64,000 bases of DNA from a virus (taxonomy: Duplodnaviria > Caudoviricetes): positions 5,544-69,543 of the IMG/VR virus record IMGVR_UViG_3300025387_000016; one strand, given 5' to 3'. A program made the position numbers and the translations under genes. Position 1 is the stretch's first letter. Each line of letters opens with the position of its first letter. The notes under the pieces are model-generated. The model was not told where the DNA came from, did no database searches, and saw nothing but the letters and a program-made list of their open reading frames with translations. Below are positions 3,091-60,811 of this stretch, one piece after another.

Positions 3091-3561
3091 CTACCAGCCG
3101 TAGCGCGTTTGCAAACTATCGGGTTTTGGCGCGCGGTCAACAATCAGCAAGCCGTTGAGATGGTCAATCTCGTGTTGGAAGATTCGGGCAATTCCACCAC
3201 TCGCCTCAATCTGTATGTTGTTGCCCTCAAGGTCAAACCCCGAAAGAACACAATCCGTGCTTCGCTCAATATGGCAAATACGATTTGGAACTGACAAGCA
3301 CCCCTCTGGGTGCGACTCTATTTCAGCACCGAGCTCCAAAGTCGGGTTGATAATAACTTCGTAGAAGCCCGACTCATCTGCGTCGTACACAAACACACTC
3401 TTGGTAATGCCGATTTGGTTTGCCGTTATTGCTACCCCGCCGTGCCGATACATAACTTCGGCCATATCTTGAGCGAGTAGAGCAATCTTCCCGTCTATTT
3501 CGGTGACGTTCCTTACCGGCAGGGCAAGAACGGCATCAGGGAATAGTCGTAGGCCGAGCAT
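3091..3561 (-). CDS. def: Peptide deformylase
   Basis: All three PDF motifs are present: GGVAITANQIG, EGCLS and QHEIDHLNG. Confidence 0.93.
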   Translation of the reverse strand: MLGLRLFPDAVLALPVRNVTEIDGKIALLAQDMAEVMYRHGGVAITANQIGITKSVFVYDADESGFYEVIINPTLELGAEIESHPEGCLSVPNRICHIERSTDCVLSGFDLEGNNIQIEASGGIARIFQHEIDHLNGLLIVDRAPKPDSLQTRYGW

Positions 3562-3562
3562 T

Positions 3563-3730
3563 TCAGCATTTACAGTTGCAGTTGCCGCCGCACTTCTTGA
3601 TTCCTAGTGTCTCGCTAGTGTCAAGCGTGGTTTCTATATTGGAAACGTCGCCCGATACGGAAACTAGACGTGGAACTTTCCCAGTAGTACTTGGGTGAAG
3701 TGCGATACTTTCGTTGAGGTTTGGGTCCAT
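3563..3730 (-). CDS. 55-aa protein with Cys-rich C-terminus
   Basis: Read manually: MDPNLNESIALHPS...LGIKKCGGNCNCKC*. It fills the gap between two genes, and its stop is 1 nt before the def start. Confidence 0.5.
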   Translation of the reverse strand: MDPNLNESIALHPSTTGKVPRLVSVSGDVSNIETTLDTSETLGIKKCGGNCNCKC

Positions 3731-3745
3731 ACCGACACATTACCC

Positions 3746-4162
3746 CTATTCGTCGCCCAAGTGCATTACATCGTGCTCGAGAATCTCCAAATCAGTCTCG
3801 ATACGTTCAGCAAGACCAGAGTTTCGCTCGACCATATCCTTTATATCCAAAACAAGATTCTTGAGTTCCTCAAACTGAGCCATCTCCATAGCCAAAATCT
3901 TGCGGATAACTTCAGCATCGGCGGCGGTTTGCTTAAACATAGCGATACCGACTACCGACTCAATAAACAAAGCCATATAGGAAGCCCAAACGTTCCACCA
4001 CGAAAGAATCGTAAAATCGTGAACCCCCCAAATAACGCAAATAACGGTAATCGTTGTGATTCCAATAAGGAAAGACCAACGGCGAATCGCGCGCTGAATA
4101 CCCCAAGAAATCGCTTCGCCAACCGAAATAGGTTCTTTGGTTACGGGGTGGAAGTAAGGCAC
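3746..4162 (-). CDS. Membrane protein with two TM helices plus coiled coil (DUF1003-like)
   Basis: Hydrophobic segments WSFLIGITTITVICVIW and WASYMALFIESVVGIAM followed by a heptad-rich tail. Confidence 0.55.
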   Translation of the reverse strand: MPYFHPVTKEPISVGEAISWGIQRAIRRWSFLIGITTITVICVIWGVHDFTILSWWNVWASYMALFIESVVGIAMFKQTAADAEVIRKILAMEMAQFEELKNLVLDIKDMVERNSGLAERIETDLEILEHDVMHLGDE

Positions 4163-4213
4163 GATAGTAGTCCTTTGGGGGTTGGGTGACTACCAAACTT
4201 TACAATAGGTTCT

Positions 4214-4558
4214 TTATTTCAGCATCTCGGCGCGCGTGATGATGTTGATGCCGATTAGTTCCTCAAGATTCTGTGGGCGATGGCGATAGTAGCCCATAAT
4301 CTTCTTGCCGATAGTGGTGGCAAAGAGAACTTCGGCCTTTGTTCCGTTTGAGCCAGCCCAACCGGGCAAAAGGATTACGCCGTCGCAGTCGAAGAGTTGG
4401 CGATACGCACTTTCGGCGGTTATTTCGTTTCCAGACTCAAGGATTTCAGCAGGGCAGAAGATTTCGTAGGTGCGACGTAGTGTAGAAAGTGCTTCCTCAA
4501 ATGAGGGATAGTTGTTGTGGGGTACGCCCGTTCGTGGTCCAGCGAGATAATACGGCAT
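4214..4558 (-). CDS. DUF4406 / nucleoside 2-deoxyribosyltransferase-like protein
   Basis: YYLAGPRTG...N.P.F...CDGVILLPGW..SNGTKAE signature. Confidence 0.75.
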   Translation of the reverse strand: MPYYLAGPRTGVPHNNYPSFEEALSTLRRTYEIFCPAEILESGNEITAESAYRQLFDCDGVILLPGWAGSNGTKAEVLFATTIGKKIMGYYRHRPQNLEELIGINIITRAEMLK

Positions 4559-5835
4559 TAGATAATCAGCAAGTCTCCCCAGCCACGCTTGCCGTAGGCC
4601 GAGCCAGCACCAAAAGTCAACATACCGGCAGGGGAGCTCTTGCCCGTTTGGTCAACGAACCACTTTGAGCCACCATCTTGAGCGGGGCATTGGAAGCAGG
4701 TGCGACCAGAGCCTTCGGACGCAATGTAGTGGTGAAAGTGACCGCTAACCACAATATCTGCTTCAGAAGCCTTTGTGCGCCCCCTAATCTGCCCCAGAAT
4801 CCACGTTTCTATCTTGGCAATAGTTCCGCCCCCATTACCCTTGCCGAACTGATGTCCGTGCGCCAAGGTGATGATAACGCCACATACGTTTAGGGTCATA
4901 GTGAGGTCTTCCTCAATCAAACCCTCAAACTGCGGGAACGAGACATTTCCAAATCTCGCCGGGTTTGCGGCACAGATTTCAGCAACGCCCTCAAACACGG
5001 ACAAGTCCATATTGTCGGTCCACGTTGTATAGGCCTTGCCGTTGAGTCGGTTTTCGCCGTGATTACCGGGAACGGCCACCACAACGAGTGGGATTTCGGG
5101 GAAGTTTTCTACGCAGAGTTCGACGTAGCGAAAAATAAGGCGACGAGCGACTTTCTGCTGTTCTCGTGAATCCAAATCAACGGAAAACGTCTGCATCGCA
5201 TAGTGATTCGAGCAGTTTTCAACTAAATCGCCCATTCCGCAGCAATAAATGACCGATGGGCCACGACCAATCTTGATGAGTTCCTTGATTCGCTCGATAG
5301 AGGCATCTTGAGAAGCCATAATGCGAGCGATAGTTGCTTCGGTTCCGCCGCCTTCTGATTTGCCTAGTTGCCAATCAGCAAAAAACGCCATAAACGCACG
5401 TTCTTCGATAGAGACTTCTCGCTTGGCTGTCTTTGCGGGCTTCTTCATTATCTCTTTACAGAGAGCCTCGATATCTGCCCTATCGCCCTTTTCGGCGCGT
5501 CGGCGGATTTGCGCTCGGTAGTAGCGCATCTTGGCGATTTCACCACCGCCGATATTGGAGTCCCACGCTCGGATATGGACAGAGCCGTCAATAATTTCGG
5601 TGAGGTTTGGGTCAAGACCCCAATCCTGAATCACCATATCCCAAAGGGCTTGGTCGGGTTCTGCGTCGGTAGCGGGGCTGTCTATGTAGCCCTTTTCGCC
5701 GTCCCAACGAATCTCTCGCTCGTATCCCTTGGCAATAGAATCTCTCCGCACTTGGGCGCGCTTCTCTGCTTCGATTTCAGCACTCTCAAAGGTCATTATA
5801 CGAATCCTTGTATTTGGTTTTCGCAGGGCAACCAC
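4558..5835 (-). CDS. Calcineurin-like metallophosphoesterase (actinophage type)
   Basis: Motifs ADWQLG, GDLVE, GNHGE, HGHQ and GHFHH in the canonical order. Confidence 0.85.
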   Translation of the reverse strand: MVALRKPNTRIRIMTFESAEIEAEKRAQVRRDSIAKGYEREIRWDGEKGYIDSPATDAEPDQALWDMVIQDWGLDPNLTEIIDGSVHIRAWDSNIGGGEIAKMRYYRAQIRRRAEKGDRADIEALCKEIMKKPAKTAKREVSIEERAFMAFFADWQLGKSEGGGTEATIARIMASQDASIERIKELIKIGRGPSVIYCCGMGDLVENCSNHYAMQTFSVDLDSREQQKVARRLIFRYVELCVENFPEIPLVVVAVPGNHGENRLNGKAYTTWTDNMDLSVFEGVAEICAANPARFGNVSFPQFEGLIEEDLTMTLNVCGVIITLAHGHQFGKGNGGGTIAKIETWILGQIRGRTKASEADIVVSGHFHHYIASEGSGRTCFQCPAQDGGSKWFVDQTGKSSPAGMLTFGAGSAYGKRGWGDLLII

Positions 5836-6040
5836 AGCCGTCTTTGAGGTGGCGTGAGAGTGTCTTGTCGTTTAGCCGCTTGCCGTCACTTGAGGCAACA
5901 CGAGCAATCCAGCCAATAGGCTTCTTGTCGTCAAGCCAGCGAGAAAGAGTCGCTTGGTCGTCTTTGTCGAGTAAGTCGAAGAACTCAATAAACCGACAAG
6001 TTCGTTCCGACGCTCGCTTTTCAGCATCCGCTAGTGACAT
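5786..6040 (-). CDS. Small hypothetical protein (possible HTH) preceding the metallophosphoesterase
   Basis: 84 aa with C...LSRH...C.C pattern, in operon position. Confidence 0.5.
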   Translation of the reverse strand: MSLADAEKRASERTCRFIEFFDLLDKDDQATLSRWLDDKKPIGWIARVASSDGKRLNDKTLSRHLKDGCGCPAKTKYKDSYNDL

Positions 6041-6079
6041 AATCCAAACTGTATCATCAGTTTGGAACGAAATCTGTCT

Positions 6080-6460
6080 CTACTTTTGGGGAGACTTTTT
6101 GACTGTCTTTTTGACGGGCTTATTGGCGACTTTTTTGGCGACGGGCTTTGTTGCTTTCTTCGCCGGGGTTGTCTTGCGAACCGCCTTTACTTTCGCAACG
6201 ATTTCAGCATCGGTAGGCGCAATTTTCTCAACGAACGCATCGGCAACCTCGTTCTTCGCATCACGCTCTTCTTGTGCGACCAACTCGGCGTAGTGAGCAA
6301 CCAACTTCGGCTCTAATGGCTCTACCCACCCACGAGCCTCGACGTAAATCTTGCCTTGCCACGTCCAGTCGTCAGATGAAACAAGTTCACCACGTTCGTA
6401 TGTGTTGCCATTTATAGGAAAACCACGAAGAACTCGATGTGTGTATCTCTTAGAAGTCAT
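6080..6460 (-). CDS. Hypothetical protein with Lys/Ala/Pro-rich histone-H1-like tail
   Basis: C-terminus VRKTTPAKKATKPVAKKVANKPVKKTVKKSPQK. Confidence 0.6.
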   Translation of the reverse strand: MTSKRYTHRVLRGFPINGNTYERGELVSSDDWTWQGKIYVEARGWVEPLEPKLVAHYAELVAQEERDAKNEVADAFVEKIAPTDAEIVAKVKAVRKTTPAKKATKPVAKKVANKPVKKTVKKSPQK

Positions 6461-6481
6461 AGGGTCACAATATCACCACAC

Positions 6482-6522
6482 AAAGCAAAAACCCCCCACC
6501 CGTGAGGGCAGGGGGCTTTCGC
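6482..6522 (-). terminator. Intrinsic terminator after the major capsid gene
   Basis: Minus strand reads GCCCCCTGCCC-TCAC-GGGTGGGGGG followed by TTTTT, about 15 nt after the MCP stop. Confidence 0.8.
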
Positions 6523-6537
6523 AGTGAACTACTGGGC

Positions 6538-7539
6538 TTAGATAATCGAAGACCAGAAGTAGCCGAGGTCGGCAGCAACAACCTTGTTGTCGAAGGCGAT
6601 TTCACCCTCAACACGGTCGGCCTTGAGCTCTTCCATACGGAAGCGCGAGACACCGACAGTCGTTCCAAGACCACCCGAAACACCAGTCCACATAAAGGTA
6701 TAGCCAGCCGAGGGGGTCAGCAAACCGGGGTTAGGTGCGGAGTAGCACAGAAGAGCCGAGTTACCAGCAACGAACGCAAAGTTGTCGTTCGTTGGGCTGT
6801 TCGAGCCTTCGTTGGCGTTGTTGACAACGGCCTTGGCGACAAGCACACGGTCCACGCCGAACAGTTGTGCGAGCAACTCTTCAGTTACAATCGCACCGGC
6901 TTGGGTGTACTTGTAGCGGTCAATCAGCAGAGGGTGGTTCTTCAAGGTTTGGAAAACCTTGTAGCCCAAGACGAAAGTGTTGGGCTCGTAACCAGTGTTC
7001 TGCAGAATTGAAGCCTTGGCGATGTCCACCTGTGCGATGGGGTCCGAGGTGTAAGACGTTGGGTTGTTCACATAGTCAGACCAAACCGTACCTGCCTGAG
7101 CAGTGGTGGTCGTACCAATGACGGTCGTTGACCAAACACCTGTGGCGAAGAAGTCGTTAGTCCATTGGACTTCCTTACGGAGAAGCAGACGTTGCGTAAC
7201 GAACTGCGTAGCCTCCATATCGGGGTTCAATGGGTTGTCGGCGTTCGCACGGGTCTGGTCGCCAATGTCCTTGTGGAAGGCGTAAACGTCGGTCGAGTAC
7301 GTTTCGGTCTGCAAGCCGTAGCCTGAACCAGCCGAAGCAGTACCGTCAGCACGACGCTGAGCCTCGTCACGGAACCAGTCTTCCTTGGTGTAGCGGAAGT
7401 AAAGGTCGGACTTCTTGTCCACCGGCACGACAGGGAAAACCCGGTCAGCGATGAAGTTGTTGGTGTTCTGCAAGTAAGCAACCGAGATGTTGGTCAAGAT
7501 TGCGTCAATGTGAACGTTGTTTACGTTGGGCTGTGGCAT
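6538..7539 (-). CDS. Major capsid protein (HK97 fold, phage capsid E-like)
   Basis: 333 aa. HIDAILTNISVAY..N..FIADRVFP.VPV.K pattern, position after scaffold and decoration genes, strongly biased codons, followed by a terminator. No N-terminal delta domain. Confidence 0.88.
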   Translation of the reverse strand: MPQPNVNNVHIDAILTNISVAYLQNTNNFIADRVFPVVPVDKKSDLYFRYTKEDWFRDEAQRRADGTASAGSGYGLQTETYSTDVYAFHKDIGDQTRANADNPLNPDMEATQFVTQRLLLRKEVQWTNDFFATGVWSTTVIGTTTTAQAGTVWSDYVNNPTSYTSDPIAQVDIAKASILQNTGYEPNTFVLGYKVFQTLKNHPLLIDRYKYTQAGAIVTEELLAQLFGVDRVLVAKAVVNNANEGSNSPTNDNFAFVAGNSALLCYSAPNPGLLTPSAGYTFMWTGVSGGLGTTVGVSRFRMEELKADRVEGEIAFDNKVVAADLGYFWSSII

Positions 7540-7559
7540 AGTTCCTCAGTCCTTTCTAA

Positions 7560-8321
7560 CTAAGCCGCACGGCCTGCGTTGTGGCAGGCGATAGCGGCAG
7601 TGATGTAGTCACCAGCGGCGGCGGAGCTCGAAAGAGCAGTACCAACAACGAAGTCGGTGGTGTCCGCAGGTGCGGTGTTCACCGAACCACCAGAGGTGTA
7701 AGTGATGGTGCTAGCAGCAGGGTTAGCAATCGTGAAGGTGTAAGAACCTGACGAACCACCAACGGCGGTAATCAGACCCTCAACGTTCAGCGAGCCGGAA
7801 CCCGAGCCAGCGGCAACAATGCCCGTGACGATGGCAGTCTGACCAACCGTGAAAGCGGTGGTCGAGCTCGTGGTGTAAACCACCTGCGTACCACTAGCAA
7901 CGGCGTTGGTGATGGTTGCGGTCTGGGTGGTTCCACCGATACCGAACTTCACCGAAACGGCCTGACCCGAAGCGTTAACCGTAATGGCATCGCCCACGCT
8001 TACAAGACCACCGGCAATAACCTTGGTGATACCCGAAATCGTGACTTCAGCCTCGTCAACACCCTCAACAACGCCAAGAGCGTTGTAGCGAACCTTAGGC
8101 GCGTTCTGAACAACACCCAGAGGGCGAGTCGAAGCGGCCGAAACGACACCAACGAGAGGTACGTTCTGGTTCGAGCCGGGGTTAGCGGTACCAGTCAGGT
8201 AAACGAACGAGAACTGCGTCATAGGCGCAGAAGAGTTCGTGTTGGTCAACTGACCACCCATCGTCGAAACGTCAGGTGAGCAAGTCAACTTGAGTGAGTA
8301 TGGATTTTGTTCCCAAGCCAT
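7560..8321 (-). CDS. Head decoration/cement protein (DUF2190-like) with inserted beta-domain
   Basis: PLGVVQNAP...AEVTISGITKVIAGGLVSVGDAITVNASGQAV...VVGTALSSSAAAGDYI, interrupted by a roughly 90-aa S/T/G-rich insert. Confidence 0.75.
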   Translation of the reverse strand: MAWEQNPYSLKLTCSPDVSTMGGQLTNTNSSAPMTQFSFVYLTGTANPGSNQNVPLVGVVSAASTRPLGVVQNAPKVRYNALGVVEGVDEAEVTISGITKVIAGGLVSVGDAITVNASGQAVSVKFGIGGTTQTATITNAVASGTQVVYTTSSTTAFTVGQTAIVTGIVAAGSGSGSLNVEGLITAVGGSSGSYTFTIANPAASTITYTSGGSVNTAPADTTDFVVGTALSSSAAAGDYITAAIACHNAGRAA

Positions 8322-9103
8322 TAGCGACCAGCCTTTTCATTGAGGTAAGAGGTGTAGAGGTCAGGGTTCGTCTGAGCAACCGACAACAGCGCGGCCTCGA
8401 ACGATGGGGCAACGCCAGAGGCAACAGCGGCCTTAGCGAGATTTTCCATCTTTGAGTAAGCGTCGTCAGCGGCAGGTGCTTCGCTTGAACCGACTTCCTT
8501 GAAGATTACGTTGGACTCAAGCAGGGCGTTAGCCGAGTCAAGTGCCTTTACGACCTCGTTAGCGAGGGTCGTGTCAGTCTCGGCAAGGCGACGAAGCGCG
8601 GGTCCGAGGATAGTTGGGTCCGAGTTGAGGTGCGACCACTCGGCAGCCTTGATAACCGCAGCCTCATCAGCACGAGCCTCACGCTCGGCAATAAGGGCAC
8701 GCTCACTAGCAGCAGCCTTGTAAAGAGCCTCTTCGGCAGCGGCCTTGCTGTCATCAAGCATCTTCTTGATAACGGCAGGCATAGCCTTGATAATCTCTTC
8801 TTCGCTCGCAACTTCGGGGATAACGACGACTTCAGCCGCCTTGAGTGTTTCACTCATTGTTTCCTCCTGTGGAGTTGTAATTTCAGCAGGGGCGATTGCC
8901 TCTACTGGTACGGCAACCTTGGTGGATTTTTCCACTTCGGCGGTGTGTCCATCGGCAAGAGCCTCCGGGCGCAGTTCGTCAAGAACGGCGGTCACATCGG
9001 ATTGAGAGGCTGATTTCATAACGGCCCAACCATCGTGGAGGTGCGCCGGACGGTCAACGCCCGACGTTTCCTTGATTGAGAGTCGCACTAGTTTGCGAGC
9101 CAC
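8321..9103 (-). CDS. Scaffolding protein
   Basis: N-terminal L..LSIKETSGVDRPAH...MK pattern seen in XkdF-associated scaffolds, Ala/Glu-rich coiled coil, upstream of MCP. Confidence 0.75.
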   Translation of the reverse strand: MARKLVRLSIKETSGVDRPAHLHDGWAVMKSASQSDVTAVLDELRPEALADGHTAEVEKSTKVAVPVEAIAPAEITTPQEETMSETLKAAEVVVIPEVASEEEIIKAMPAVIKKMLDDSKAAAEEALYKAAASERALIAEREARADEAAVIKAAEWSHLNSDPTILGPALRRLAETDTTLANEVVKALDSANALLESNVIFKEVGSSEAPAADDAYSKMENLAKAAVASGVAPSFEAALLSVAQTNPDLYTSYLNEKAGR

Positions 9104-9136
9104 ATTTTCTCCTAAGAACTTTCACTATCGGAATAC

Positions 9137-9184
9137 CAATAGTCTTGACAACTGAAATCATAGAAGCGATTTCCAAACTGTCAA
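9137..9184 (-). promoter_or_regulatory. Promoter for the scaffold-decoration-capsid operon
   Basis: Minus strand TTGACA-gtttggaaatcgcttc(16)-TATGAT at 9157-9184, containing the TTTGGAAA element. Confidence 0.6.
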
Positions 9185-9214
9185 TAGTTGAACTCTTGGA
9201 GTGAGTGATTTCCT

Positions 9215-10030
9215 TTAGAAAGGCGAGTACTCGGGCCGTGCGAATACGGGGCAGATGCTCTTGAACGAACACCATTTGTCACAAAGATTATTTGGAGTGG
9301 GCGGGAAGAAACCAAGTTCATACCACTTCTCAATCTTGCCCCACGCTTCGCGCACTCGCTTTTCTGCGTAGGCAACATCAGCATCGGTAACTTCTATATT
9401 GAGTGTCTTGCCGAACTGAACGTAGAGTAGTCGTATGTTCTTGGGTCGCTCGCCCAATACCTTCTCACAGAGATAGGCGTAAATCTTTGAGGGGAGAACT
9501 GCCGAAGCCTTGTATTTGTCGGTCGGCACTTTCCCGGTTTTGTAGTCAACAATTTCCAAGTTGCCATCAGCATCTCGGTCAAGGCGGTCAAGGATGCCAC
9601 GAAGTAGCCACCCACCCATATCCACTTCCATTTGGATTTCTATGCCCTCGGAGGTGATTTGCGTGGGGTCTTCCATCGTGAAGTAGGTGCGGATGTATTT
9701 GGCAACGTCACGGCCAAAGACTTGTATGCCTTGTTCGTCAATGCCCATTTCTTCGGCATACTCGGCGGTGACTAAACCACGGAACATTTCTCGCATAAGG
9801 GCAAGGGTGTAATCAACTGTCCGTAGTTCGGGCGTTTCAGCAGTTCGATTGAACATCTCTTCCAAGATGGCGTGGAAGACAGTTCCCCGATATGTCTCCA
9901 TTTTCTTGCGTTCGGGCAACTTGTCAATGCTTGATAATTGGTATTGCCGGGGGCAAGACTCAATCTGATTCACTCGGCTTGGTGATACGCCGTAGGGCTT
10001 CGGGCCGAGCGTGACAGGGGTTGAGTTCAT
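9215..10030 (-). CDS. RecB-family PD-(D/E)XK exonuclease (Cas4-like fold)
   Basis: SPSRVNQIESCPRQY; GTVFHAILE; LRGILDRLD..IVDYKTGK; C..C..C C-terminal cluster. Start placed at ATG 10030. Confidence 0.85.
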   Translation of the reverse strand: MNSTPVTLGPKPYGVSPSRVNQIESCPRQYQLSSIDKLPERKKMETYRGTVFHAILEEMFNRTAETPELRTVDYTLALMREMFRGLVTAEYAEEMGIDEQGIQVFGRDVAKYIRTYFTMEDPTQITSEGIEIQMEVDMGGWLLRGILDRLDRDADGNLEIVDYKTGKVPTDKYKASAVLPSKIYAYLCEKVLGERPKNIRLLYVQFGKTLNIEVTDADVAYAEKRVREAWGKIEKWYELGFFPPTPNNLCDKWCSFKSICPVFARPEYSPF

Positions 10031-10094
10031 AGTTTCCACACTAGCAAAGTGGTATGTCACACCCTTGAGTTATCGTATATTTGTCAAGAAATAC

Positions 10095-10123
10095 TTGACA
10101 GGGGTTTAGTTTGGAAATACAAT
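10095..10123 (+). promoter_or_regulatory. Consensus sigma-70/sigma-A promoter, leaderless
   Basis: TTGACA-N17-TACAAT with ATG 6 nt after the -10. The -35 is one arm of the inverted repeat TGTCAAG-N5-CTTGACA (10082-10100). Confidence 0.85.
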
Positions 10124-10129
10124 AGAAGT

Positions 10130-10447
10130 ATGGAAAACAAGGAGAAAGAAATGGATGAGAACCTGAAGTTGGTTCAGCAGTGGCTCAAGGAAGAGTGCAA
10201 GGACAAGACTGTCTTGGCTTGGTATATGGACCACAACGAGTCTTGCCTAATCAGCATCGGCGGTGTGGAAGTCCCAGACTACGCCGAGTGGGGCTATGAG
10301 AGTGGCTATGAAAACTACATCTACTTCATCAACGCAAACGGTGAAGAAGAGTGGGCCGGCGACCTTGACAATGCCTACGAGGATGAGATGTTCCTCAAGA
10401 AGATTGCCGACTTTGACGAGTTCAAGCAGTTCGCAGGAACTCTCTAA
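10130..10447 (+). CDS. Acidic hypothetical protein (isolated plus-strand gene)
   Basis: ATG directly after the promoter; an internal AAGGAG/ATG at 10151 is an alternative start. Confidence 0.7.
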   Translation: MENKEKEMDENLKLVQQWLKEECKDKTVLAWYMDHNESCLISIGGVEVPDYAEWGYESGYENYIYFINANGEEEWAGDLDNAYEDEMFLKKIADFDEFKQFAGTL

Positions 10448-10450
10448 AAG

Positions 10451-10717
10451 TTAGAAGAGTTCCTCAAAGTGGTTATAGTCGGCCACGCTTGCTAAAGCCG
10501 TAGCAATAGTTTCAGCAAGAATGATTGCGTCTTCCTTAGACCCAGCGTAGATAGAGAAATCCTGCATCGGCACAATCATTCCGCCCACGTTATCCTTACG
10601 CACCACTCGCAACTCGCTTGGTGCTTTGGGGTCTTCGGGTGTCCAAATAACGAACTCGTAAGGATTATCCTTAGCGCGAGTTTGGTTGAAATCTAGTTCT
10701 TCCCAAGTAAGGGGCAT
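10451..10717 (-). CDS. Hypothetical protein
   Basis: 88 aa, coupled (TAATG) to the upstream gene. Confidence 0.65.
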   Translation of the reverse strand: MPLTWEELDFNQTRAKDNPYEFVIWTPEDPKAPSELRVVRKDNVGGMIVPMQDFSIYAGSKEDAIILAETIATALASVADYNHFEELF

Positions 10718-10992: not shown

Positions 10993-11037
10993 AGTGACTC
11001 TCCTTTCGTGACCCCACTATACCATACCTACGTTGCT

Positions 11038-11442: not shown

Positions 11443-11460
11443 ACCACCCCATACTACCGA

Positions 11461-12139: not shown

Positions 12140-12172
12140 GTTGCGAACTTCTCCTTGGCGGTAATGCTTGCT

Positions 12173-50720: not shown

Positions 50721-50748
50721 TACTACCTAGAGGGCAGTAGTGCGTGGA

Positions 50749-51202: not shown

Positions 51203-51247
51203 TGAGTATGTAGGCAACGATGACCTACGAAAGCAAAGGAGATTCAG

Positions 51248-52348: not shown

Positions 52349-52360
52349 GGGGGTATAAGT

Positions 52361-53409: not shown

Positions 53410-53417
53410 GGAGAGTT

Positions 53418-54338
53418 ATGAGTCGTATGTCTATTGACCAAAACGCAATTCGTCAGAGCGTTTATGCCTACGCAAACAACCTAGCGGCGCTAGCCGAATC
53501 GTCTAGTGGAAAGTTGCCACCTTTCTTGGTGACTCTTACCGCCTCAACGGGCTACGCCGTTGCCGATGCCCTTGACTACGACACCGAGCAGTCTTGTAGA
53601 AACGGCAGCGTGAAAATTGTTATTAGCGACGTTGAGCAGACCTATGCCGATATTGACGAGGCCAAGCAAACTGCCAACCCTATTTTGAGGCGCGCTCTCA
53701 ATAGTTTCCGCAACTCAATCCGAACTCGTGTCGCCAATCTTGGTGATGAGGTTGCGGAAACATTTGCCGCGCCGTATCTCGCTATCCTTGACGGGTCTGC
53801 GCCGCTACCAGCAAATAGCAATACGGGTTTTGCTCGCCACGACATCACCTCGTTGATTTCGTTCTACAACTCAACGATTCGTTATAAAGAGAATCGTTCA
53901 TCACTTCGATTTGAGTATTGCAACTCTAATCGTGTGGAAGCGAGGGTAGACAACTTCAACTATGTGTTCGCTCGTGTCACACCTCGCTATGAACAGACGG
54001 GTGAAGGAATCGAGTTGCGAAACAACGTTGAGTTCTTCCCCTATAACTCAGGAACGCTCGGCAACGCACACAGTATCTTGCGCTCCAACTCGGATGTATC
54101 ACCACTTGTCTCTATTGACAACGGCACGTTTGGTGGCAACCCTATTCGGAGTATGGACGAGGTGAAGATGTCTATCGTCTCAGTCCTTGACTTGAGTGCG
54201 TCGCTTATCCGTGCGGAAGTTCTTGCGGAACTTGAGCGCCGCTTCGCACTACTAGAGCCCGTATGCGGAACTATCACGGCTTCGTTTGCCGATGGTTCCG
54301 TCAAAGTGTTCAACGCTACCGAGAGTTCGGTGGCGTGA
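53418..54338 (+). CDS. Hypothetical protein
   Basis: 306 aa, AAGGAG RBS. Confidence 0.7.
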   Translation: MSRMSIDQNAIRQSVYAYANNLAALAESSSGKLPPFLVTLTASTGYAVADALDYDTEQSCRNGSVKIVISDVEQTYADIDEAKQTANPILRRALNSFRNSIRTRVANLGDEVAETFAAPYLAILDGSAPLPANSNTGFARHDITSLISFYNSTIRYKENRSSLRFEYCNSNRVEARVDNFNYVFARVTPRYEQTGEGIELRNNVEFFPYNSGTLGNAHSILRSNSDVSPLVSIDNGTFGGNPIRSMDEVKMSIVSVLDLSASLIRAEVLAELERRFALLEPVCGTITASFADGSVKVFNATESSVA

Positions 54339-54352
54339 TGAGGGGAGGTGAA

Positions 54353-54757
54353 ATGAACAAGAACAACCAAGTAATCGCACTTTTGACCGATGCGTTGACC
54401 AACGTTGCCGCCGAACGTAAAGAGGCAGCAATCACGAGCATCGCTTCGGCAATCCGCCTCGTGAACGAGACAACGACTACGGCTATCACCACCCCAGCAG
54501 TGGCAAAGCCTACGTCCGTCGCTCGACGTGGACGCCCGGTGGGGAGTAAGAACGGCAAGAACGCTCGCAAGACGGGTCCAAAGCCGGGTCGAACTCGCTT
54601 CTCGGTGGACAACATCAAGTCCATCAACGAGCGTCTTAGCAACGGAGTGCCTGTCGCGCGTATCGCCAAAGATATGAACGTCAGTTATCAAACGATTTAC
54701 ACCTACGCAAGTCGCTTGAAGAAGACTCCGGCTACGTCAGTCACTACGGCTAACTAA
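54353..54757 (+). CDS. DNA-binding protein with AT-hook-like motif and C-terminal HTH
   Basis: RRGRPVGSKN; RLSNGVPVARIAKDMNVSYQTIY; GGAGG RBS. Confidence 0.7.
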   Translation: MNKNNQVIALLTDALTNVAAERKEAAITSIASAIRLVNETTTTAITTPAVAKPTSVARRGRPVGSKNGKNARKTGPKPGRTRFSVDNIKSINERLSNGVPVARIAKDMNVSYQTIYTYASRLKKTPATSVTTAN

Positions 54758-54766
54758 TCACCACTA

Positions 54767-54819
54767 TTTAGGCGGTTGTGGCGTGGGTTCTTGCCTATGT
54801 CACAGCCGCCTAGTAGTAT
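54767..54819 (+). promoter_or_regulatory. Long hairpin overlapping a TGTCAC-containing promoter
   Basis: TAGGCGGTTGTGGCG...TGTCACAGCCGCCTA (15 pairs with G-T wobbles); TTGCCT-N17-TAGTAT at 54791-54819. Confidence 0.6.
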
Positions 54820-54849
54820 CTAAACGTAGGTTTAGTAAAGGAGATGCCT

Positions 54850-55128
54850 ATGGCAACGAAGAAGTATGTAGTGACCCTAGAGGTTGAGTGCGACCCCGAC
54901 GAAGTTCAGGGCTTGCCACTCAATCACCCGGCTTGTTGGAACTACAACGCCTTGCTTCGCGCTGGCGGATACAACGTATGGGCCGACGCAAAGCAGGTCT
55001 ACGAGGCTTGCTGCGATGGATACATCAACTGGGTATCGACCCCTGAAGACGAGCGTTTTATCAAGAAGTTTGATGCGTTCTTCCACGATGAGGATTGCGT
55101 CAATTTTGTTGACATTGACGAAGAATAG
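54850..55128 (+). CDS. Hypothetical protein
   Basis: AAAGGAG RBS. Confidence 0.65.
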   Translation: MATKKYVVTLEVECDPDEVQGLPLNHPACWNYNALLRAGGYNVWADAKQVYEACCDGYINWVSTPEDERFIKKFDAFFHDEDCVNFVDIDEE

Positions 55129-55191
55129 TTAGGCACAGGTCGCTCGTAGCCCCTACTATGTGTTGAGTTATTTCAGCACGAGAGGAACGCT

Positions 55192-55530
55192 ATGAGCGAT
55201 ACCGCCCCTAATATCCAATACCCAACCGCAGAATCCGCTAAGGCTATGCCCACTAAGGAAGCGGCGGTCGGTGCAGAGTTGATGTTCGTCCACAACGTTA
55301 TCGTTGCGACCGTCAACGAACTTGTGGCGAAACACAACGCATTGGCCGACCCCAACGACCCTACGAAAGTGGAAACACCAGAGGGCAATCAGAACTTTGG
55401 CGCAATCAACGCGCTGGGCTGGGTATTGGCGTTCACGGAAGACCGCATCAAGGTCTATGTAGATGACTTAGAGAAAGTTGTTGGCACGGATGGTGAAGGC
55501 CCTACGGAAGATACCCCCAGTGGCGAGTAG
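55192..55530 (+). CDS. Hypothetical protein
   Basis: 112 aa, GAGG RBS. Confidence 0.6.
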   Translation: MSDTAPNIQYPTAESAKAMPTKEAAVGAELMFVHNVIVATVNELVAKHNALADPNDPTKVETPEGNQNFGAINALGWVLAFTEDRIKVYVDDLEKVVGTDGEGPTEDTPSGE

Positions 55531-55888
55531 CGAACCTTTTGATTCGTCGGTGCTCGGCTCTATCGAGCATCAGGCCGAGAAGTTGGGATACCTCATCGCA
55601 ACGGTGGACAACGCATTTCAGCAGCGAGCGAAAGATGCGAAGCACGTCACGTTGGTAGAACACTCCAAAATTGGAATCGAGATGATGGATGCCTATCTAA
55701 AGGGCGAGCTCACGATTGACCAATATGCCGAGGGTGCGGCCCAACTCTTAGCCGACACGACACGGCGTAATGATGAAACGAACGCCAACCTATCAAACGC
55801 AATCAACCAACTAAACAAAGCAGTTCAGGATTCGGTTGAGCAAGGAAAACTCCGTTTTTTTCTTGAGGGTATTCAAGAAAATCCTTGA
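55520..55888 (+). CDS. Hypothetical coiled-coil protein
   Basis: GTG 55520 overlaps the upstream stop. Confidence 0.55.
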   Translation: MASSEPFDSSVLGSIEHQAEKLGYLIATVDNAFQQRAKDAKHVTLVEHSKIGIEMMDAYLKGELTIDQYAEGAAQLLADTTRRNDETNANLSNAINQLNKAVQDSVEQGKLRFFLEGIQENP

Positions 55889-55913
55889 CTTACTAAACTC
55901 TAGGCACTAAACT
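55885..55913 (+). promoter_or_regulatory. Internal promoter
   Basis: TTGACT-N17-TAAACT; AAAAGGAG RBS follows. Confidence 0.7.
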
Positions 55914-55942
55914 AGAGTAGAGCAGAGAAAAGGAGATTAGTA

Positions 55943-56182
55943 ATGACTACTGTTCAGCAGCCATACGAACCCGTATGGAAGCCCGGTATCAAGTGCCTCA
56001 CGTCAGTCGTGACCCTGAATAATGGTTTCGTCGTAAGTGCGGAGATGTATCTTGAGGGCGAAGGCGTGACGCTAGAAATGTCCTGTGACGGACAAACGAT
56101 GAGTCACTACAATATTGAAAACACAGCAAAGGCTCGTCAAATCTTTGTTGACTTCATCAACGCTAATGGTGGGGGTCAGTAA
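55943..56182 (+). CDS. Hypothetical protein
   Basis: 79 aa. Confidence 0.65.
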   Translation: MTTVQQPYEPVWKPGIKCLTSVVTLNNGFVVSAEMYLEGEGVTLEMSCDGQTMSHYNIENTAKARQIFVDFINANGGGQ

Positions 56183-56577
56183 TGGGTTTGGACCAATACG
56201 CATTTGCCGTGATGCCCAATGAGGACAACACGGATTTCTCATACGCCGTAGAGCCGAGCAAACGGATTGCCCAGTGGCGTAAGAATAGCAACCTACAGGG
56301 TTGGATGGAAGAGTTGTATCACCGCAAGCGTGCCGAGCAGGGCTTAGAGGACATCAGCGAGGATTGGCAGGCGTTCAACTGCCAGCCCCTACGCCTGACG
56401 TTTCAAGACCTCAAAGACTTGCGAGAGGCAGCCACCAACAAGGCTCTGCCTCACACGGAGGGGTTCTTTTTCGGGGCGACCGACGAACACCACTACGAGG
56501 AAATTATGGAGTTTCTTGATGAGGCGGAAACGGCTATGCGTCAAGATATGGAAATCTATTACGACAGTTGGTGGTGA
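56182..56577 (+). CDS. Conserved phage protein (MGLD.Y...WRK...YY.SWW type)
   Basis: Recognisable recurring phage motif; no function known to me. Confidence 0.7.
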   Translation: MGLDQYAFAVMPNEDNTDFSYAVEPSKRIAQWRKNSNLQGWMEELYHRKRAEQGLEDISEDWQAFNCQPLRLTFQDLKDLREAATNKALPHTEGFFFGATDEHHYEEIMEFLDEAETAMRQDMEIYYDSWW

Positions 56578-56579
56578 CT

Positions 56580-56981
56580 ATGAAGAAAGCACTAAAGATT
56601 TCTACGAACAACGTTCGTGAAGTTGTGGAGTTTGACAACTCAACTTCCTACGACACAATTCGCACCGCCGTAGGTGGGTGGATTGAGTGCGTCCGCATCC
56701 CCTCGCTCAACGTTGAGATGTGGGTCAATGAAGAGGGGAAGTTATCCGACGACCCTATTCAGAATCCAACGGGAACGGCTCTGTGGGTTGACAACTATGG
56801 TGAAACTGATGTCATTATTGGCGACATTATCTTCACGAGCGGAACCGACGCAAACGGTCACACGCTTGGATTGAGCGACGAGCAACTCAACTCGCTTCTC
56901 AACTACACGAAGACCGCTTTCGTTGAAAACCTTGAAATCACAGACTTCACAGGTTTCACTATTGCGCCACTAGACGTTTAG
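56580..56981 (+). CDS. DUF3846-like protein
   Basis: AVGGWIECV...MWVNEEGK...NP.GT.L...I.GDIIF. Confidence 0.75.
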   Translation: MKKALKISTNNVREVVEFDNSTSYDTIRTAVGGWIECVRIPSLNVEMWVNEEGKLSDDPIQNPTGTALWVDNYGETDVIIGDIIFTSGTDANGHTLGLSDEQLNSLLNYTKTAFVENLEITDFTGFTIAPLDV

Positions 56982-56983
56982 GG

Positions 56984-57607
56984 CTACATACCTTTCCAAA
57001 CGTTTGCCTGCGGCATATCTATCGGCATCATATCGGGCAGGGCCTTTCGGGGTTTCCTGCCCGATATGTTTAGTTCCGTCAACGCCCATACGAGGGCATC
57101 CATACGGTCGGGTGATTCCCTCTTGCTTTGCCCGGGAACCCACGTTGTCATTTGGTCTTCCAATGCGGCGAACTGCGCAGGGTCGCCTATGTGATGGATG
57201 CGCCCTTGCTCGTACATCGCCACGATAGGTTCAGCACGGGCTTTCTTACCCTCGCCTGCGTTGGGTCGCAAGACGGGGAGTGTCGGGCGAATCGTGCGTA
57301 GCGTCATCTCCAAGAGCTCGTGACCAGCGTTACTTTCTACGACAACGACACCAGCATCCCATTCATCAAACGCCTCTACGACCCGTGTAGCCCATTTCTC
57401 GGGCGTTGCCTTGTTCCCCTTGGGGATTGTGGCATCTTCTAAGACGTAGCCGTGAACGGTGCAGTGGTCGAGCGAGCAAGTTTCGGGTTGGTGTGGCCCT
57501 GATGCGGCCACGATGATTCCCGTTTCGTCTGCGTTTTCACCACTCGTCATCGCCGGGTCAACGCCGACAACGATGCGAATAAAGTCTTCCGCCCTAACCG
57601 TTATCAC
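56984..57607 (-). CDS. terL: Terminase large subunit, nuclease domain (separate ORF)
   Basis: VVGVDPA...DETGIIVA; VVVESNAG; K.ARAEP...YEQG...H; SPDRMDALVWA. Confidence 0.88.
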   Translation of the reverse strand: MITVRAEDFIRIVVGVDPAMTSGENADETGIIVAASGPHQPETCSLDHCTVHGYVLEDATIPKGNKATPEKWATRVVEAFDEWDAGVVVVESNAGHELLEMTLRTIRPTLPVLRPNAGEGKKARAEPIVAMYEQGRIHHIGDPAQFAALEDQMTTWVPGQSKRESPDRMDALVWALTELNISGRKPRKALPDMMPIDMPQANVWKGM

Positions 57608-58551
57608 GCCACCAACTCCCCACGGGTCGAGTCAATAAGTTCCAAACTCCATAGCGCGCCCTCGACGTCAGTGAGAACCAATCCATCGAGCTCCTGTCGC
57701 CCGATTCGAGTTCCGGCATATGCCGACATCACTTGGTCACGGAATGACGGTGCGAGGTTTTTGAGATTGTCATAGGTTGTTCCGTTGGTGATTGTGGTTG
57801 TCTTTCGTTCCATTACTTGACGAACAAGTTTCACGCGCTTCGGCGTAGTAGTCACCAGAGCCTTTGGGTCTTTGCCAAGACGAAGACCGAGCATTAGGTT
57901 GTTCCAACTCGTATCCAAAGTATCGCCCTTTGCCGCATCAGACCAAGCGGCCAACTCGTCGCACCACGCAGCATCGTGCTGTGGACCACGCAACTGACTC
58001 GGGGCGTGAGCAGAGTAGGTGAACGCTTGCGCGCCATTGGGCCACACAAGTCGGCGTTTCGTTGGTTCGTGGCTCGGCTTCTCGTGGGGCGCAGAGCAAT
58101 TCATAATGCCCGAGTCGCCGTAAATCATTACGTCTCGCACGTCGGCTGGGGTTCGCCCTACGAGGGCAATACGCTTGTAGCCCTGATTCCAAACTAAATC
58201 AAGCACCCATTCAGCACCCGCGCGAGTTTTCCCGGTTCCACGGCCGCCACTAAAGAACCAAGTAAGCCACGGGGCTTCGGGGTCGGAGTATGGGGGTCGC
58301 TGTGGGGTTCGAGCGTGTTTACAGAACGGCGTGTGGTTCTCGGAGTCAATCGGGTGGTCGCACCAGTGGAATCCGGCGTGTGGTTCACCATCACACTCTT
58401 TACGAGTGCAGTACCAGCGTCGCTTCGGGGCGTTTTGCTCTACCTCAATCTCTTGCTGTACGGCGAAGAGCTCTTCGGGTGTAAGCGAGTTGAGGACAAT
58501 CTCACGCTGGTCTTTTGGCAACTCCAAGAGTTTTTGGATTGTCGGGTTCAT
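57604..58551 (-). CDS. terL: Terminase large subunit, ATPase domain (separate ORF)
   Basis: Walker A GGRGTGKT; LRGPQHDAAWCDELAAW (Walker B); VTTTPK; QELDG. Confidence 0.9.
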   Translation of the reverse strand: MNPTIQKLLELPKDQREIVLNSLTPEELFAVQQEIEVEQNAPKRRWYCTRKECDGEPHAGFHWCDHPIDSENHTPFCKHARTPQRPPYSDPEAPWLTWFFSGGRGTGKTRAGAEWVLDLVWNQGYKRIALVGRTPADVRDVMIYGDSGIMNCSAPHEKPSHEPTKRRLVWPNGAQAFTYSAHAPSQLRGPQHDAAWCDELAAWSDAAKGDTLDTSWNNLMLGLRLGKDPKALVTTTPKRVKLVRQVMERKTTTITNGTTYDNLKNLAPSFRDQVMSAYAGTRIGRQELDGLVLTDVEGALWSLELIDSTRGELVA

Positions 58552-58554
58552 TTG

Positions 58555-58638
58555 CTACTTCTGACGCAGAAAAGATACGACCAGCATCAGCACAATGCCA
58601 GCCCCAAAGCCCCAAAGATACGAAATGATGTGGTTCAT
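58555..58638 (-). CDS. 27-aa single-TM peptide upstream of terminase
   Basis: MNHIISYLWGFGAGIVLMLVVSFLRQK; start 7 nt after the TAGTAT -10. Confidence 0.45.
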   Translation of the reverse strand: MNHIISYLWGFGAGIVLMLVVSFLRQK

Positions 58639-58678
58639 AAGTGCCATACTACCGCCTAGTTTGGAAAGCGGGGGTTAG

Positions 58679-58909
58679 TTATGGCTTCGAGTAGGTTCCG
58701 CCACGCCGCTTGTATTCCTGAACGACCCAGCCATTTGCGACTGCTGATGGGTAGACATCGAACTTCTTTTGTGCGTCGGCCTTTACTTGGTCGTAAAGTT
58801 TCTGATTGTCTGGCTCACCCTTTCGATTGCCAATTAACTTGGAGTAGTTAGGCTTCTTCTTGGCGAGGCGAATCCAAGATTCGATTTCAGCACGGGTTTC
58901 GTTGTTCAT
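58679..58909 (-). CDS. Small protein with the cargo-type leader plus DUF5872-like domain
   Basis: AEIESWIRLAK leader; P.NQKLY..VK..A.KKF..YPSA.AN.WVVQEYKRRGG.Y. Confidence 0.7.
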   Translation of the reverse strand: MNNETRAEIESWIRLAKKKPNYSKLIGNRKGEPDNQKLYDQVKADAQKKFDVYPSAVANGWVVQEYKRRGGTYSKP

Positions 58910-58931
58910 ACCCGCAATCTTACATAGGGGT

Positions 58932-59228
58932 TTAGAGAATCCCGTTGTTTATTGGCGGGGCGAGCCTAACGGCGCAGAGAGGGCAGAAAACGAACTCGTA
59001 ATCCATTTCATCGGGCGGGCTACTTACGCCGTAATACGAGCCATCTGGGCCTCTATGGGCGCAACCTACGGGTTTATCAGCACGGAGTTCGCTTTCACTC
59101 CACGAGGCATTGGCCGCAACGTAGGTTATGTAGACATCTACCTCTACGGCTTCAATCGTTATCTCGCGCCCAAAGCGAGTAAAGACTTTTTGCCCTTTGT
59201 CAAACTTTGGAATGATTGTCTGGCTCAT
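58932..59228 (-). CDS. Hypothetical protein with Cys/His motif
   Basis: F.KGQKV; GC.H...FCPLC. Confidence 0.55.
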   Translation of the reverse strand: MSQTIIPKFDKGQKVFTRFGREITIEAVEVDVYITYVAANASWSESELRADKPVGCAHRGPDGSYYGVSSPPDEMDYEFVFCPLCAVRLAPPINNGIL

Positions 59229-59407
59229 AGGTCTTCTAGCCACGTTACACGAGTGGTGAATCGCTCGCTACCCCAGTCCAAGTCACGGTCTTTGGAGTAG
59301 AGGCGTTGTAGTGCGCGTTCTTTATCCGAGGCTTCGACGTAATACTTTACGAACGCACCCTCGTTATAACCATCGTGTTCTACGAGCCAACGGGAAAAAC
59401 GAATCAT
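59225..59407 (-). CDS. Hypothetical protein
   Basis: 60 aa, ATGA coupled. Confidence 0.5.
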   Translation of the reverse strand: MIRFSRWLVEHDGYNEGAFVKYYVEASDKERALQRLYSKDRDLDWGSERFTTRVTWLEDL

Positions 59408-59634
59408 TGGAAAATCCTATGCTCATTTCCCTCGGTGTGTGCGTCAATAATGTCGCAGAGTTGTTGGTAGCACTCCCACCAGCCCTCGTCATAGCCCGTG
59501 ACTCGCTCGGTTGGCGGTTCGTCGCTTGACGTGGGCTTGTATTTCAGCAGTCGCTCAGAGATAAGTTCCAAAAGGAGTTCCTCGGAACGGTTCTGTGCCT
59601 TATGGCAGTCGCACGGTGGCTTAGGGCCGCCCAT
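59404..59634 (-). CDS. Hypothetical protein
   Basis: 76 aa; GYDEGW..C pattern. Confidence 0.5.
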   Translation of the reverse strand: MGGPKPPCDCHKAQNRSEELLLELISERLLKYKPTSSDEPPTERVTGYDEGWWECYQQLCDIIDAHTEGNEHRIFQ

Positions 59635-59650
59635 TATTCCACCTTCGTCA

Positions 59651-60811
59651 TCAGAACAACTTTTCTTGTTTCGGTTCCACTTGTTGTTGGTGCGCCCAAG
59701 CCACCCGTGCCTCGATGATGGGCCAGTAGTCCTCGGTCATCTCGCAGCCCACCCAGTCAAAGCCCTCTAGGATACAGGCCACTGCCGTTGAGCCGGAGCC
59801 GAGGAACGGGTCTAGCACGGTTCCGTTCGGGGGGGTGACCAACTTGACCAAGTAGCGCATCAGGGCAAGGGGCTTGACGGTGGGGTGGAAGTTCTGGCGT
59901 AGGGCTTGGCTTCTGTTCCGAGGGTTTGTAGTGCCAGCCCTTTCGTAATCGTCCTCATCTTGGCGACGTTCCGGCAGCCCCTCCAGCCCTGCGTTGCGCT
60001 CGGACTTGCTGGCCTTAGCGCAGTAGAAGAAACGCCCTGCGTCGTTTGGAAACCCTGACAGCACTTCGTCGCTTCCGTCGTGGATGACGTTGGCAGGCCA
60101 GCGACCTTCTCGTTCAGCGCCACCATTATTGTTTGTGCCACCCTCAAATAAGCCGTTAAAGCCCTTACCGTTTGTGGTGACTACGGTTTCAGTCCCCACC
60201 CGTGACCCGTCAATGTTCAGCGCACCCGTTCCCCACTCCAGCACGTTCGAGGCCACTGTGCCGGTCAGGGGCTTGCGAGCGACACATATAGGTTCGTGGG
60301 CTGGCTTTAGGGCTGTTCCCCAGCCTTGCCAGCGTTGGGCTTCGGGAGTGACGGGTGCGGTAATGTTTGCTGTTGCCGAGCCACCCATACTGTCCGAGAA
60401 GCCAACGGGGGAGTTTGCCGCTTCTGACGGGCGTCTAGCAGCGTATCGGTTTTGACCCACCACCTCACGCTCCGCACCGGCAGCCTTGTCTATTGCCTTG
60501 CTCACGTCCAGCGACTTCGGGAAGCCCGAGCCGTAGAGCCACATAATCTGGTCACGGATTTCAAAGCCAGCGTCCTCGATAGCCACGGTCATCCGGTGGT
60601 AGGTGCGAGAGCCGGAGAACGCCAGCAAGTGTCCGCCGGGTTTCAGCACACGGAAGCACTCTTTCCAAACCTTAACGTTGTAGGCGATACCAGAGTTATC
60701 CCACGCTTTGCCCATAAATCCTAATTCGTATGGGGGGTCGGTCACAACTGCGTCAATTGAGTTGTCGGGTAAAGATTTCAGCGTGACGAGACAGTCGCCT
60801 TTGAGTAGCAT
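59651..60811 (-). CDS. N6-adenine/N4-cytosine DNA methyltransferase (beta class)
   Basis: GDC; VVTDPPY; VLKPGGHL; HPTVKP; VLDPFLGSGST. Confidence 0.92.
   Translation of the reverse strand: MLLKGDCLVTLKSLPDNSIDAVVTDPPYELGFMGKAWDNSGIAYNVKVWKECFRVLKPGGHLLAFSGSRTYHRMTVAIEDAGFEIRDQIMWLYGSGFPKSLDVSKAIDKAAGAEREVVGQNRYAARRPSEAANSPVGFSDSMGGSATANITAPVTPEAQRWQGWGTALKPAHEPICVARKPLTGTVASNVLEWGTGALNIDGSRVGTETVVTTNGKGFNGLFEGGTNNNGGAEREGRWPANVIHDGSDEVLSGFPNDAGRFFYCAKASKSERNAGLEGLPERRQDEDDYERAGTTNPRNRSQALRQNFHPTVKPLALMRYLVKLVTPPNGTVLDPFLGSGSTAVACILEGFDWVGCEMTEDYWPIIEARVAWAHQQQVEPKQEKLF

Follow-up and report, generated by a model that had tools for sequence, protein, structure and literature searches.

Genes and features of the contig

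The window analysed here is a 64,000-nucleotide stretch of tailed phage DNA (Caudoviricetes; IMG/VR record IMGVR_UViG_3300025387_000016). It corresponds to bases 5544-69543 of a single 69,543-bp virus contig, labelled G0 (G0rc), and all position numbers are window coordinates. The element under study is an over-represented and strongly strand-polar octamer, which reads TTTCAGCA on the plus strand, that is, TGCTGAAA on the sense strand of minus-strand genes. The contig is 56% complete according to CheckV, which corresponds to a genome of roughly 120 kb with about 44% missing, and homologues of its proteins are found on contigs of 121-125 kb. Both observations rule out reading the contig as a full circular genome in which the polarity switches a second time at the ends. 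Megablast found no close DNA match among isolated phages. The nearest capsids, with 46-55% identity, belong to Arthrobacter, Microbacterium and Pseudomonas siphoviruses, and IMG/VR contains 187 related contigs.

The genes recognised by family searches are nearly all on the minus strand, and many of the proteins have no family match. They comprise the terminase large subunit as two adjacent open reading frames (ORFs; 57604-58551 and 56984-57607), the portal (34609-36222), the scaffold (7560-8321), the major capsid protein (6538-7539), a Cas4-like nuclease (9215-10030), an SbcD-like phosphoesterase (4558-5796), and a series of large proteins without family. An HNH-like protein is encoded at 40207-40653, and a single-stranded DNA-binding protein (SSB), a GH25 endolysin, several DNA methyltransferases and a peptide deformylase were also recognised. 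The minus-strand tail-gene module starts in the first part of the window (1..3052), with a 428-aa gene at 1766-3052 and a 1514-aa gene extending beyond the window; collagen-like tail-fibre genes lie upstream of the window on the same contig. A plus-strand block at 51248-56981 comprises an amidoligase, a glutamine amidotransferase and other genes.

Counts, sites and form of the word

The exact count of TTTCAGCA in the window is 57 on the plus strand and 8 on the minus strand, while dinucleotide shuffling yields 3.0 copies on both strands together, with a maximum of 10. The count of about 56 versus about 7 made by hand in an earlier, sequence-only reading of this DNA was therefore right, as were its coordinates. 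Over the whole contig the figures are 57 and 12, which makes the word its most frequent octamer, with a density of about one per kb (990 per Mb).

The plus-strand copies start at 3321, 3561, 4217, 4444, 4977, 5775, 6019, 6202, 8881, 9835, 10510, 11481, 11610, 12361, 13353, 13551, 13753, 14167, 16592, 16938, 17375, 18105, 18269, 18407, 18710, 19149, 20643, 21027, 25059, 25537, 26050, 26719, 28397, 29690, 29948, 30827, 31856, 33130, 33330, 33540, 33834, 35451, 38251, 39895, 41067, 44500, 47723, 48430, 49900, 50141, 50772, 53141, 55171, 55616, 58885, 59542, and 60641 (the last copy, 60641-60648). Copies in the opposite orientation, with TGCTGAAA on the plus strand, start at 2729, 12705, 14681, 16463, 24261, 25357, 45352, and 49725 (span 2729..49732), and the tail genes that precede the window on this contig hold four more. 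The copies have unrelated flanks and are therefore not repeats. Regular spacing was considered and ruled out, as the coefficient of variation of the intervals, 0.93, is no different from random. A search of the literature for the octamer yielded nothing but primers and unrelated sequences.

One-mismatch variants are rare, with the exception of TTTCACCA (complement TGGTGAAA), the second-best form. It has 15 plus-strand copies, at 5538, 12445, 34284, 37264, 38420, 42167, 44354, 44904, 45169, 45678, 46765, 48633, 53389, 57535, and 61279 (span 5538..61286), and 2 on the minus strand, at 4730 and 56798. The core common to both forms is WTCASCA / TGSTGAW, which is present 170 versus 54 times in the window. 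The last base of the octamer hardly varies: after TTTCAGC comes A in 57 cases, G in two, and C or T in none. Read on the coding strand, the wobble base of the codon preceding GCTGAAA is T in 57 of 59 cases (97%), against a background of 24%. The base extending the motif adds little information, being T in 32 of the 57 copies and G in one. One copy, at 3561-3568, spans a gene junction: its TGA is the stop codon of an upstream 55-aa ORF and its last base opens the ATG of the peptide deformylase gene.

Selection on the DNA word

The word had been described as independent of reading frame, which does not hold. Of the 52 copies in minus-strand genes, as delimited by crude gene calls, 44 (85%) are read as nnT-GCT-GAA-Ann (Ala-Glu), seven contain CTG-AAA (Leu-Lys), and one overlaps a TGA stop codon. 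Nevertheless, coding requirements do not explain the counts. Synonymous-codon shuffling within each gene gives 7.8 +/- 1.9 copies (maximum 14) against the 57 observed, a 7-fold excess, and shuffling of codon order gives 4.4. Copies in the opposite orientation also exceed the synonymous null (12 observed, 3.4 expected).

We then considered compatible positions, defined as sites where the protein sequence permits the word through synonymous change alone. In minus-strand genes outside the tail module, 50 of the 95 compatible positions (53%) are occupied, comprising 44 of 75 in the Ala-Glu frame and 6 of 20 in the Leu-Lys frame. Compatible positions are themselves 2.3-fold enriched over amino-acid shuffles (96 versus 41.7), which indicates that selection has reached the protein sequences. 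Three copies (38251, 55171, and 59542) are intergenic, where 0.11 would be expected.

The related contig G001 shares 75% DNA identity with G0 over 33 kb. Of the 31 alignable sites, 21 are intact in G001, while 2.9 are predicted from the identity of their flanks and random 8-mer windows are conserved at 16.5%. Two of the altered G0 sites read TGGTGAAA in G001, and all four alignable copies in the opposite orientation are conserved. The occupancy, the fixed wobble base, the conservation of sites, and the orientation retained in minority-strand genes and intergenic DNA establish that purifying selection acts on the DNA word itself, beyond any coding need, as the sequence-only reading had proposed. 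Independent metagenome contigs repeat both the word and many of its sites, so that an assembly artefact does not account for them.

Orientation and gaps along the contig

The polarity of the word tracks the DNA strand and not transcription. In the plus-strand block, the copies at 53141, 55171, and 55616 keep the genomic orientation, as had been noted from the sequence for 53141 and 55616, and do not follow the sense strand. The intergenic copies at 38251 and 59542 keep it as well. Within plus-strand genes, sense-strand TGCTGAAA occupies none of its 6 compatible positions, while TTTCAGCA occupies 2 of 6. When the orthologous block of G001 is included, the sense-strand form is present at 2 of 13 positions in minority-strand genes versus 97 of 177 in majority-strand genes (Fisher p = 0.008). 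The other form shows the reverse, at 9 of 18 versus 15 of 72 (p = 0.018). As G0 and G001 share ancestry, the sites pooled in these tests are not fully independent.

The tail genes contain only copies in the opposite orientation. The composition of the tail proteins explains this bias: it predicts 0.6 compatible positions for sense-strand TGCTGAAA and 14.7 for TTTCAGCA, and the proteins have 1 and 15, respectively. A replication origin, a terminus or a genome end at the apparent polarity flip around 2729-3321 was ruled out on the same grounds. The absence of the word from the capsid region (6210-8880), which had been reported as a feature, is real, and no copy is found in the capsid and scaffold genes (6538..8321, minus strand). 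It is uninformative as a signal, since sense-strand TGCTGAAA has no compatible position in either gene and the opposite orientation has a single one, in the scaffold gene, which is unoccupied. In G001, occupancy is even along the contig, at about 55% in every 10-kb bin.

Direction and word in related phages

Nearly all relatives with a capsid identity of at least 75%, which span 50-58% G+C content (GC), are enriched in the core TGSTGAW; the enrichment is absent from the group of relatives with 61-63% capsid identity. The relatives compared share a collinear gene order, yet the direction of the core relative to those genes differs by lineage. In G0rc, the sense strand is favoured, with 171 copies versus 71 on the opposite strand (synonymous-shuffle null 38 and 28, respectively), and G001 and L045 also favour the sense strand. 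The opposite strand is favoured in G003 (201 versus 41 on the sense strand), in L009 (39 versus 2), and in G808 (101 versus 12; null 49.8 and 18.5). G002 and G005 carry the core on both strands. In G0-G5, the counts of both orientations are 1.9-4.5 fold above the synonymous null, while the disfavoured orientation of G808 is at or slightly below it. The copies of G808 are on one strand at 1-2.5 per kb, except in a 24-kb stretch (about 36-60 kb) around the terminase, methyltransferase, amidoligase and endolysin genes, which is nearly free of copies.

One relative uses another word. In G806, a 113.7-kb contig that is 91% complete and has a capsid 78% identical, TGSTGAW is not enriched, and the contig has its own polar word, TTGCGYC (96 versus 29; synonymous null 35 and 17.5). 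The enrichment on the antisense strand of orthologous genes in part of the family excludes explanations at the level of RNA or codons. Together with the minority-strand genes, which keep the genomic orientation, the reversed sister phages also show that polarity does not simply follow the coding strand. These results show a DNA process with a lineage-specific direction and sometimes a lineage-specific word.

Candidate hosts

The host is probably an actinobacterium. The named bacterial homologues of the SSB all belong to Actinomycetota, mostly to Microbacteriaceae, and they are the sole consistent lead to the host. The homologues of the peptide deformylase are taxonomically mixed, no tRNAs were found, and a capsid search of 185,579 species genomes returned no prophage copy. 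We sampled 401 Microbacteriaceae and 401 Actinomycetota genomes, the latter including 15 unpublished genomes. In the small genomes of moderate GC among them, the word is 4-30 fold above the reversed-word control. In G036, a small actinobacterial genome and candidate host lineage of which 400 kb was read and which is among the richest, the word is the 30th octamer; the Pseudomonas Chi is only the 43rd octamer of PAO1. The commonest octamer of G036 (contigs C1, C10, and C11) is GCGCATCC, with 92 copies in 400 kb, and this may be the lineage's own special word.

A Chi-type signal as the favoured interpretation

The interpretation that we tentatively favour is that the word is a Chi-type signal for an end-tracking helicase-nuclease. 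TGCTGAAA, with the core TGSTGAW and with TGGTGAAA tolerated, would be a DNA recognition word kept by selection at about one per kb, and an enzyme tracking along one strand would read it in a direction-dependent manner. The helicase-nuclease would enter at a free double-strand end, which could belong to ejected DNA, to the tail of a concatemer or to what remains after a packaging cut, stop degrading when it meets a correctly oriented word, and then pass the end to recombination. The enzyme could be a host AdnAB, AddAB or RecBCD class enzyme or, conceivably, the Cas4-like or SbcD-like nuclease of the phage. Dense and even sites would protect a genome whose ends can be anywhere. We infer both the nature of the reader, an end-processing nuclease, and the effect, protection and recombination, from this pattern.

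Several features argue for this interpretation. The word is the top octamer, it lies far above the codon-aware expectation, and it is strongly one-stranded. Among the analogies that had been put forward for it, Chi is the best supported and has a precedent in phages. Chi is read on the 3'-ended strand by a host enzyme of the RecBCD or AddAB type, whose nuclease activity changes there, and it is over-represented and usually co-oriented with replication in the host chromosome. Host Chi is enriched in phages that rely on host recombination, namely LLS, P1, and MD8 and its relatives; the Escherichia coli phages LLS, which is lambdoid, and P1 carry GCTGGTGG, and Pseudomonas aeruginosa MD8 and its relatives carry GCTGGCGC (Zheng et al., Genome Res 2025, PMC12315714). 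LLS has 23 sites, 20 of them in one direction, MD8 has 32, all in one direction, and P1 has 50, Chi being the top octamer in each (PMC12315714). As in these phages, one octamer tops the genome, at tens of times the number expected by chance and with a strong bias to one strand, and codon usage does not explain it. The density of about one per kb, of the same order as or above that of LLS (about one per 1.9 kb), and the rank of the word match those of Chi-rich phages, and the tolerated one-mismatch variants parallel Chi-like sequences. The map geometry is also that of the active Chi of LLS and lambda, as the terminase and structural genes of this contig have the word on their sense strand. A reader or an exposed DNA end that changes from lineage to lineage would account for the reversed direction in G003, G808 and L009 and for the different word of G806. 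A scan of about 70 window proteins, in a contig that represents 56% of the genome and in which many proteins have no family, recognised neither a strand-annealing protein nor an inhibitor of the Gam type, and five related contigs yielded no phage replisome. The rank of the word in G036 (30th, with the Pseudomonas Chi 43rd in PAO1) also favours this interpretation.

Other observations weigh against this interpretation. The word matches no organism's known Chi. The sampled candidate host lineages neither enrich nor polarise it: the highest density among the roughly 800 Actinomycetota genomes is about 210 copies per Mb, compared with 990 in the phage; occupancy of compatible positions in G036 is 10% (37 copies versus 23.7 expected), near codon expectation; plus- and minus-strand genes of G036 do not differ in the word, and the contigs of G036 and G648 mix strands. 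Some of these lineages lack RecBCD, with RecC absent from five small Microbacteriaceae genomes, and we know of no Chi for AdnAB. In addition, the sites are spread evenly, with no clustering towards a DNA end, whereas those of LLS and MD8 are clustered at one end. Both orientations are above the null in most relatives, which is not the case in Chi-rich phages, and collinear sister lineages (G003 and G808) have opposite polarity, which a reader tied to the direction of packaging does not predict. The phage encodes Cas4-like and SbcD-like nucleases of its own, and the occurrence of one core in phages of 50-58% GC would point to a reader that the phage family brings with it. The word is a genuine, strongly selected and strand-polar one, and we regard it as a variant of the phenomenon seen in Chi-rich phages, not as a demonstrated member.

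A bolder version appears quite unlikely. The word could be the first Chi-equivalent for an actinobacterial AdnAB-type helicase-nuclease, or the track signal of an undescribed direction-sensitive enzyme of this freshwater phage family. In either case, its direction would have flipped between sister lineages, with more than 100 sites per genome moved to the other strand.

Polar words such as Chi are, to our knowledge, known for very few bacteria. Here, a family of abundant, uncultured freshwater phages fills half of the positions permitted by its proteins with such a word, amino-acid changes included, and this gives a sequence-defined handle on a DNA-tracking enzyme. The family also contains natural controls, in which the word is on the other strand, on both strands, or replaced (TTTCAGCA / TGCTGAAA versus TTGCGYC). 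With such lineages, the reader and the direction of the process become open to experiment, and the word could help to assign hosts to such phages.

Alternative explanations

The word could instead be the binding or target site of a protein of the phage family, used in either orientation, with the strand bias being secondary. The candidates are a methyltransferase or hypermodification enzyme marking DNA as self, a ParB-like or SNF2-type tracking protein, and a packaged DNA-coating protein; the family does carry several DNA methyltransferases, a base-modification-like gene block, an SNF2 helicase and ParB-like proteins. This would agree with the distribution of TGSTGAW in the family, with its excess in both orientations, with the conservation of the reverse copies, and with the absence of a comparable signal in the sampled candidate hosts. 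However, an orientation-blind site would not make minority-strand genes adopt the costlier sense-strand form, and the near-absolute polarity of G808, where the disfavoured orientation is at or below the null, is not predicted. Restriction and modification targets are usually avoided rather than enriched, and no protein has been linked to the word. We consider this explanation rather unlikely but a serious competitor of the Chi-type signal. A replication-linked signal, that is, a priming or loading site on the lagging-strand template every kb or so, whose polarity follows a lineage-specific fork direction, is a further candidate of distinctly low probability. The even density and the independence from transcription speak for it. 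The uniform polarity of G808 over about 100 kb, bounded by the site-free 24 kb at the terminase and early genes, fits one unidirectional process, and relatives enriched on both strands could replicate in both directions. Nevertheless, spacing is random instead of regular, and the recognition sites of known primases comprise three bases and not eight. Furthermore, no DnaB-type helicase (DnaB_C), Prim-Pol or family A polymerase (DNA_pol_A) was found in G000-G004, which are all incomplete (54-87% by CheckV) and in which the DnaG zinc-finger and Toprim families were not searched; this absence weakens a role for a phage primase.

Site-specific single-strand interruptions in virion DNA, like those of T5, tf or LUZ24-like phages, would share with the word an asymmetric consensus mainly on one strand; the individual sites are positionally conserved, and the contig encodes the HNH-like protein at 40207-40653. 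This is improbable, since the related contigs have 57-200 sites each, an order of magnitude more than the roughly 5-20 nicks of known phages. Moreover, 12 of the 69 copies are on the other strand and conserved as well, and nicking gives no reason for selection to maximal density, amino-acid changes included. An even weaker case can be made for a KOPS-type (FtsK orienting polar sequence) or SRS-type (SpoIIIE recognition sequence) signal, which orients a host translocase of the FtsK/SpoIIIE class. Such words of the host chromosome are skewed by replichore and point to dif, and one would be relevant here if the phage resides in the chromosome. The word is an 8-base polar one, its wrong orientation in G808 is at or slightly below the null, and, as with chromosomal Chi and KOPS/SRS, the orientation of a short asymmetric word is set by a DNA-tracking process and not by gene direction, with degenerate variants tolerated. 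In contrast to those chromosomal signals, it belongs to a phage genome with no demonstrated switch from origin to terminus; what looks like one at the tail genes reflects a coding constraint. Family scans of the window recognised no integrase, the capsid search gave no prophage, and the contigs of the candidate hosts G036 and G648 show no internal polarity. Finally, a coding by-product, such as an Ala-Glu dicodon or codon-context preference, or an RNA motif in the messages of long operons is largely refuted and the least probable explanation of all. The high share of copies in the GCT-GAA frame would be expected from it, and sense-strand TGCTGAA is about 2x codon expectation in G036, so that a mild context bias exists in that lineage. 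It is contradicted by the excess over the synonymous null, by the intergenic copies, by the failure of plus-strand genes to use the sense-strand form, and by G003, G808 and L009, in which the word is antisense to the same orthologous genes.

Two other known systems can be compared with the word. The stoperators of cluster A mycobacteriophages are asymmetric 13-bp repressor sites present throughout the genome and oriented with transcription. Their hosts are actinobacteria, as the host of this phage probably is, and they share with the word many asymmetric copies within and between genes. The word differs from them in keeping its genomic orientation in oppositely transcribed genes and in being antisense in the sister phages G003, G808 and L009. 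With regard to DNA uptake sequences (DUS/USS, the latter for uptake signal sequences), which saturate a host genome on both strands, no sampled genome approaches the density of the word in the phage.

Other observations

The two parts of the terminase large subunit abut within 56984-58551 (minus strand); the ATPase portion has 315 aa and the nuclease portion 207 aa. Since the gene is split in the same way in G001, G002, G806 and G808, the arrangement is conserved and does not reflect a sequencing error. In G806, the terminase gene has the opposite orientation to the portal and capsid genes.

Genes at 4214-4558 (minus strand), 43241-43675 (plus), 47622-49674 (minus), and 51248-53089 (plus) comprise an amidoligase, a class-II glutamine amidotransferase, a gamma-glutamyl cyclotransferase-like protein, a glycosyltransferase, a dCMP deaminase and a nucleoside 2-deoxyribosyltransferase-like protein. 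From its predicted content, this set looks like a pathway for DNA base hypermodification. At 12173-14938 (minus strand), an ORF for the catalytic part of a C5 cytosine methyltransferase is followed by three short ORFs, each with a match to the C-terminal region of DNA methyltransferase families (PHROG 16528 and 116).

AAYCARGG and part of TGGTGGAA were rejected as further polar words of the relatives, as they derive from 9-bp-periodic coding repeats, collagen-like or Gly-rich, in tail fibres. In L052 (12900-19400), for example, AAYCARGG recurs at multiples of 9 bp in tail-fibre genes, where Gly-X-Y repeats mimic an over-represented word. TTTGGAAA / TTTCCAAA are among the commonest words on both strands throughout the window and in G001, G002 and G806, and the longer word TAGTTTGGAAA (5 versus 0) is likewise among the frequent ones; these may represent a promoter-like element.

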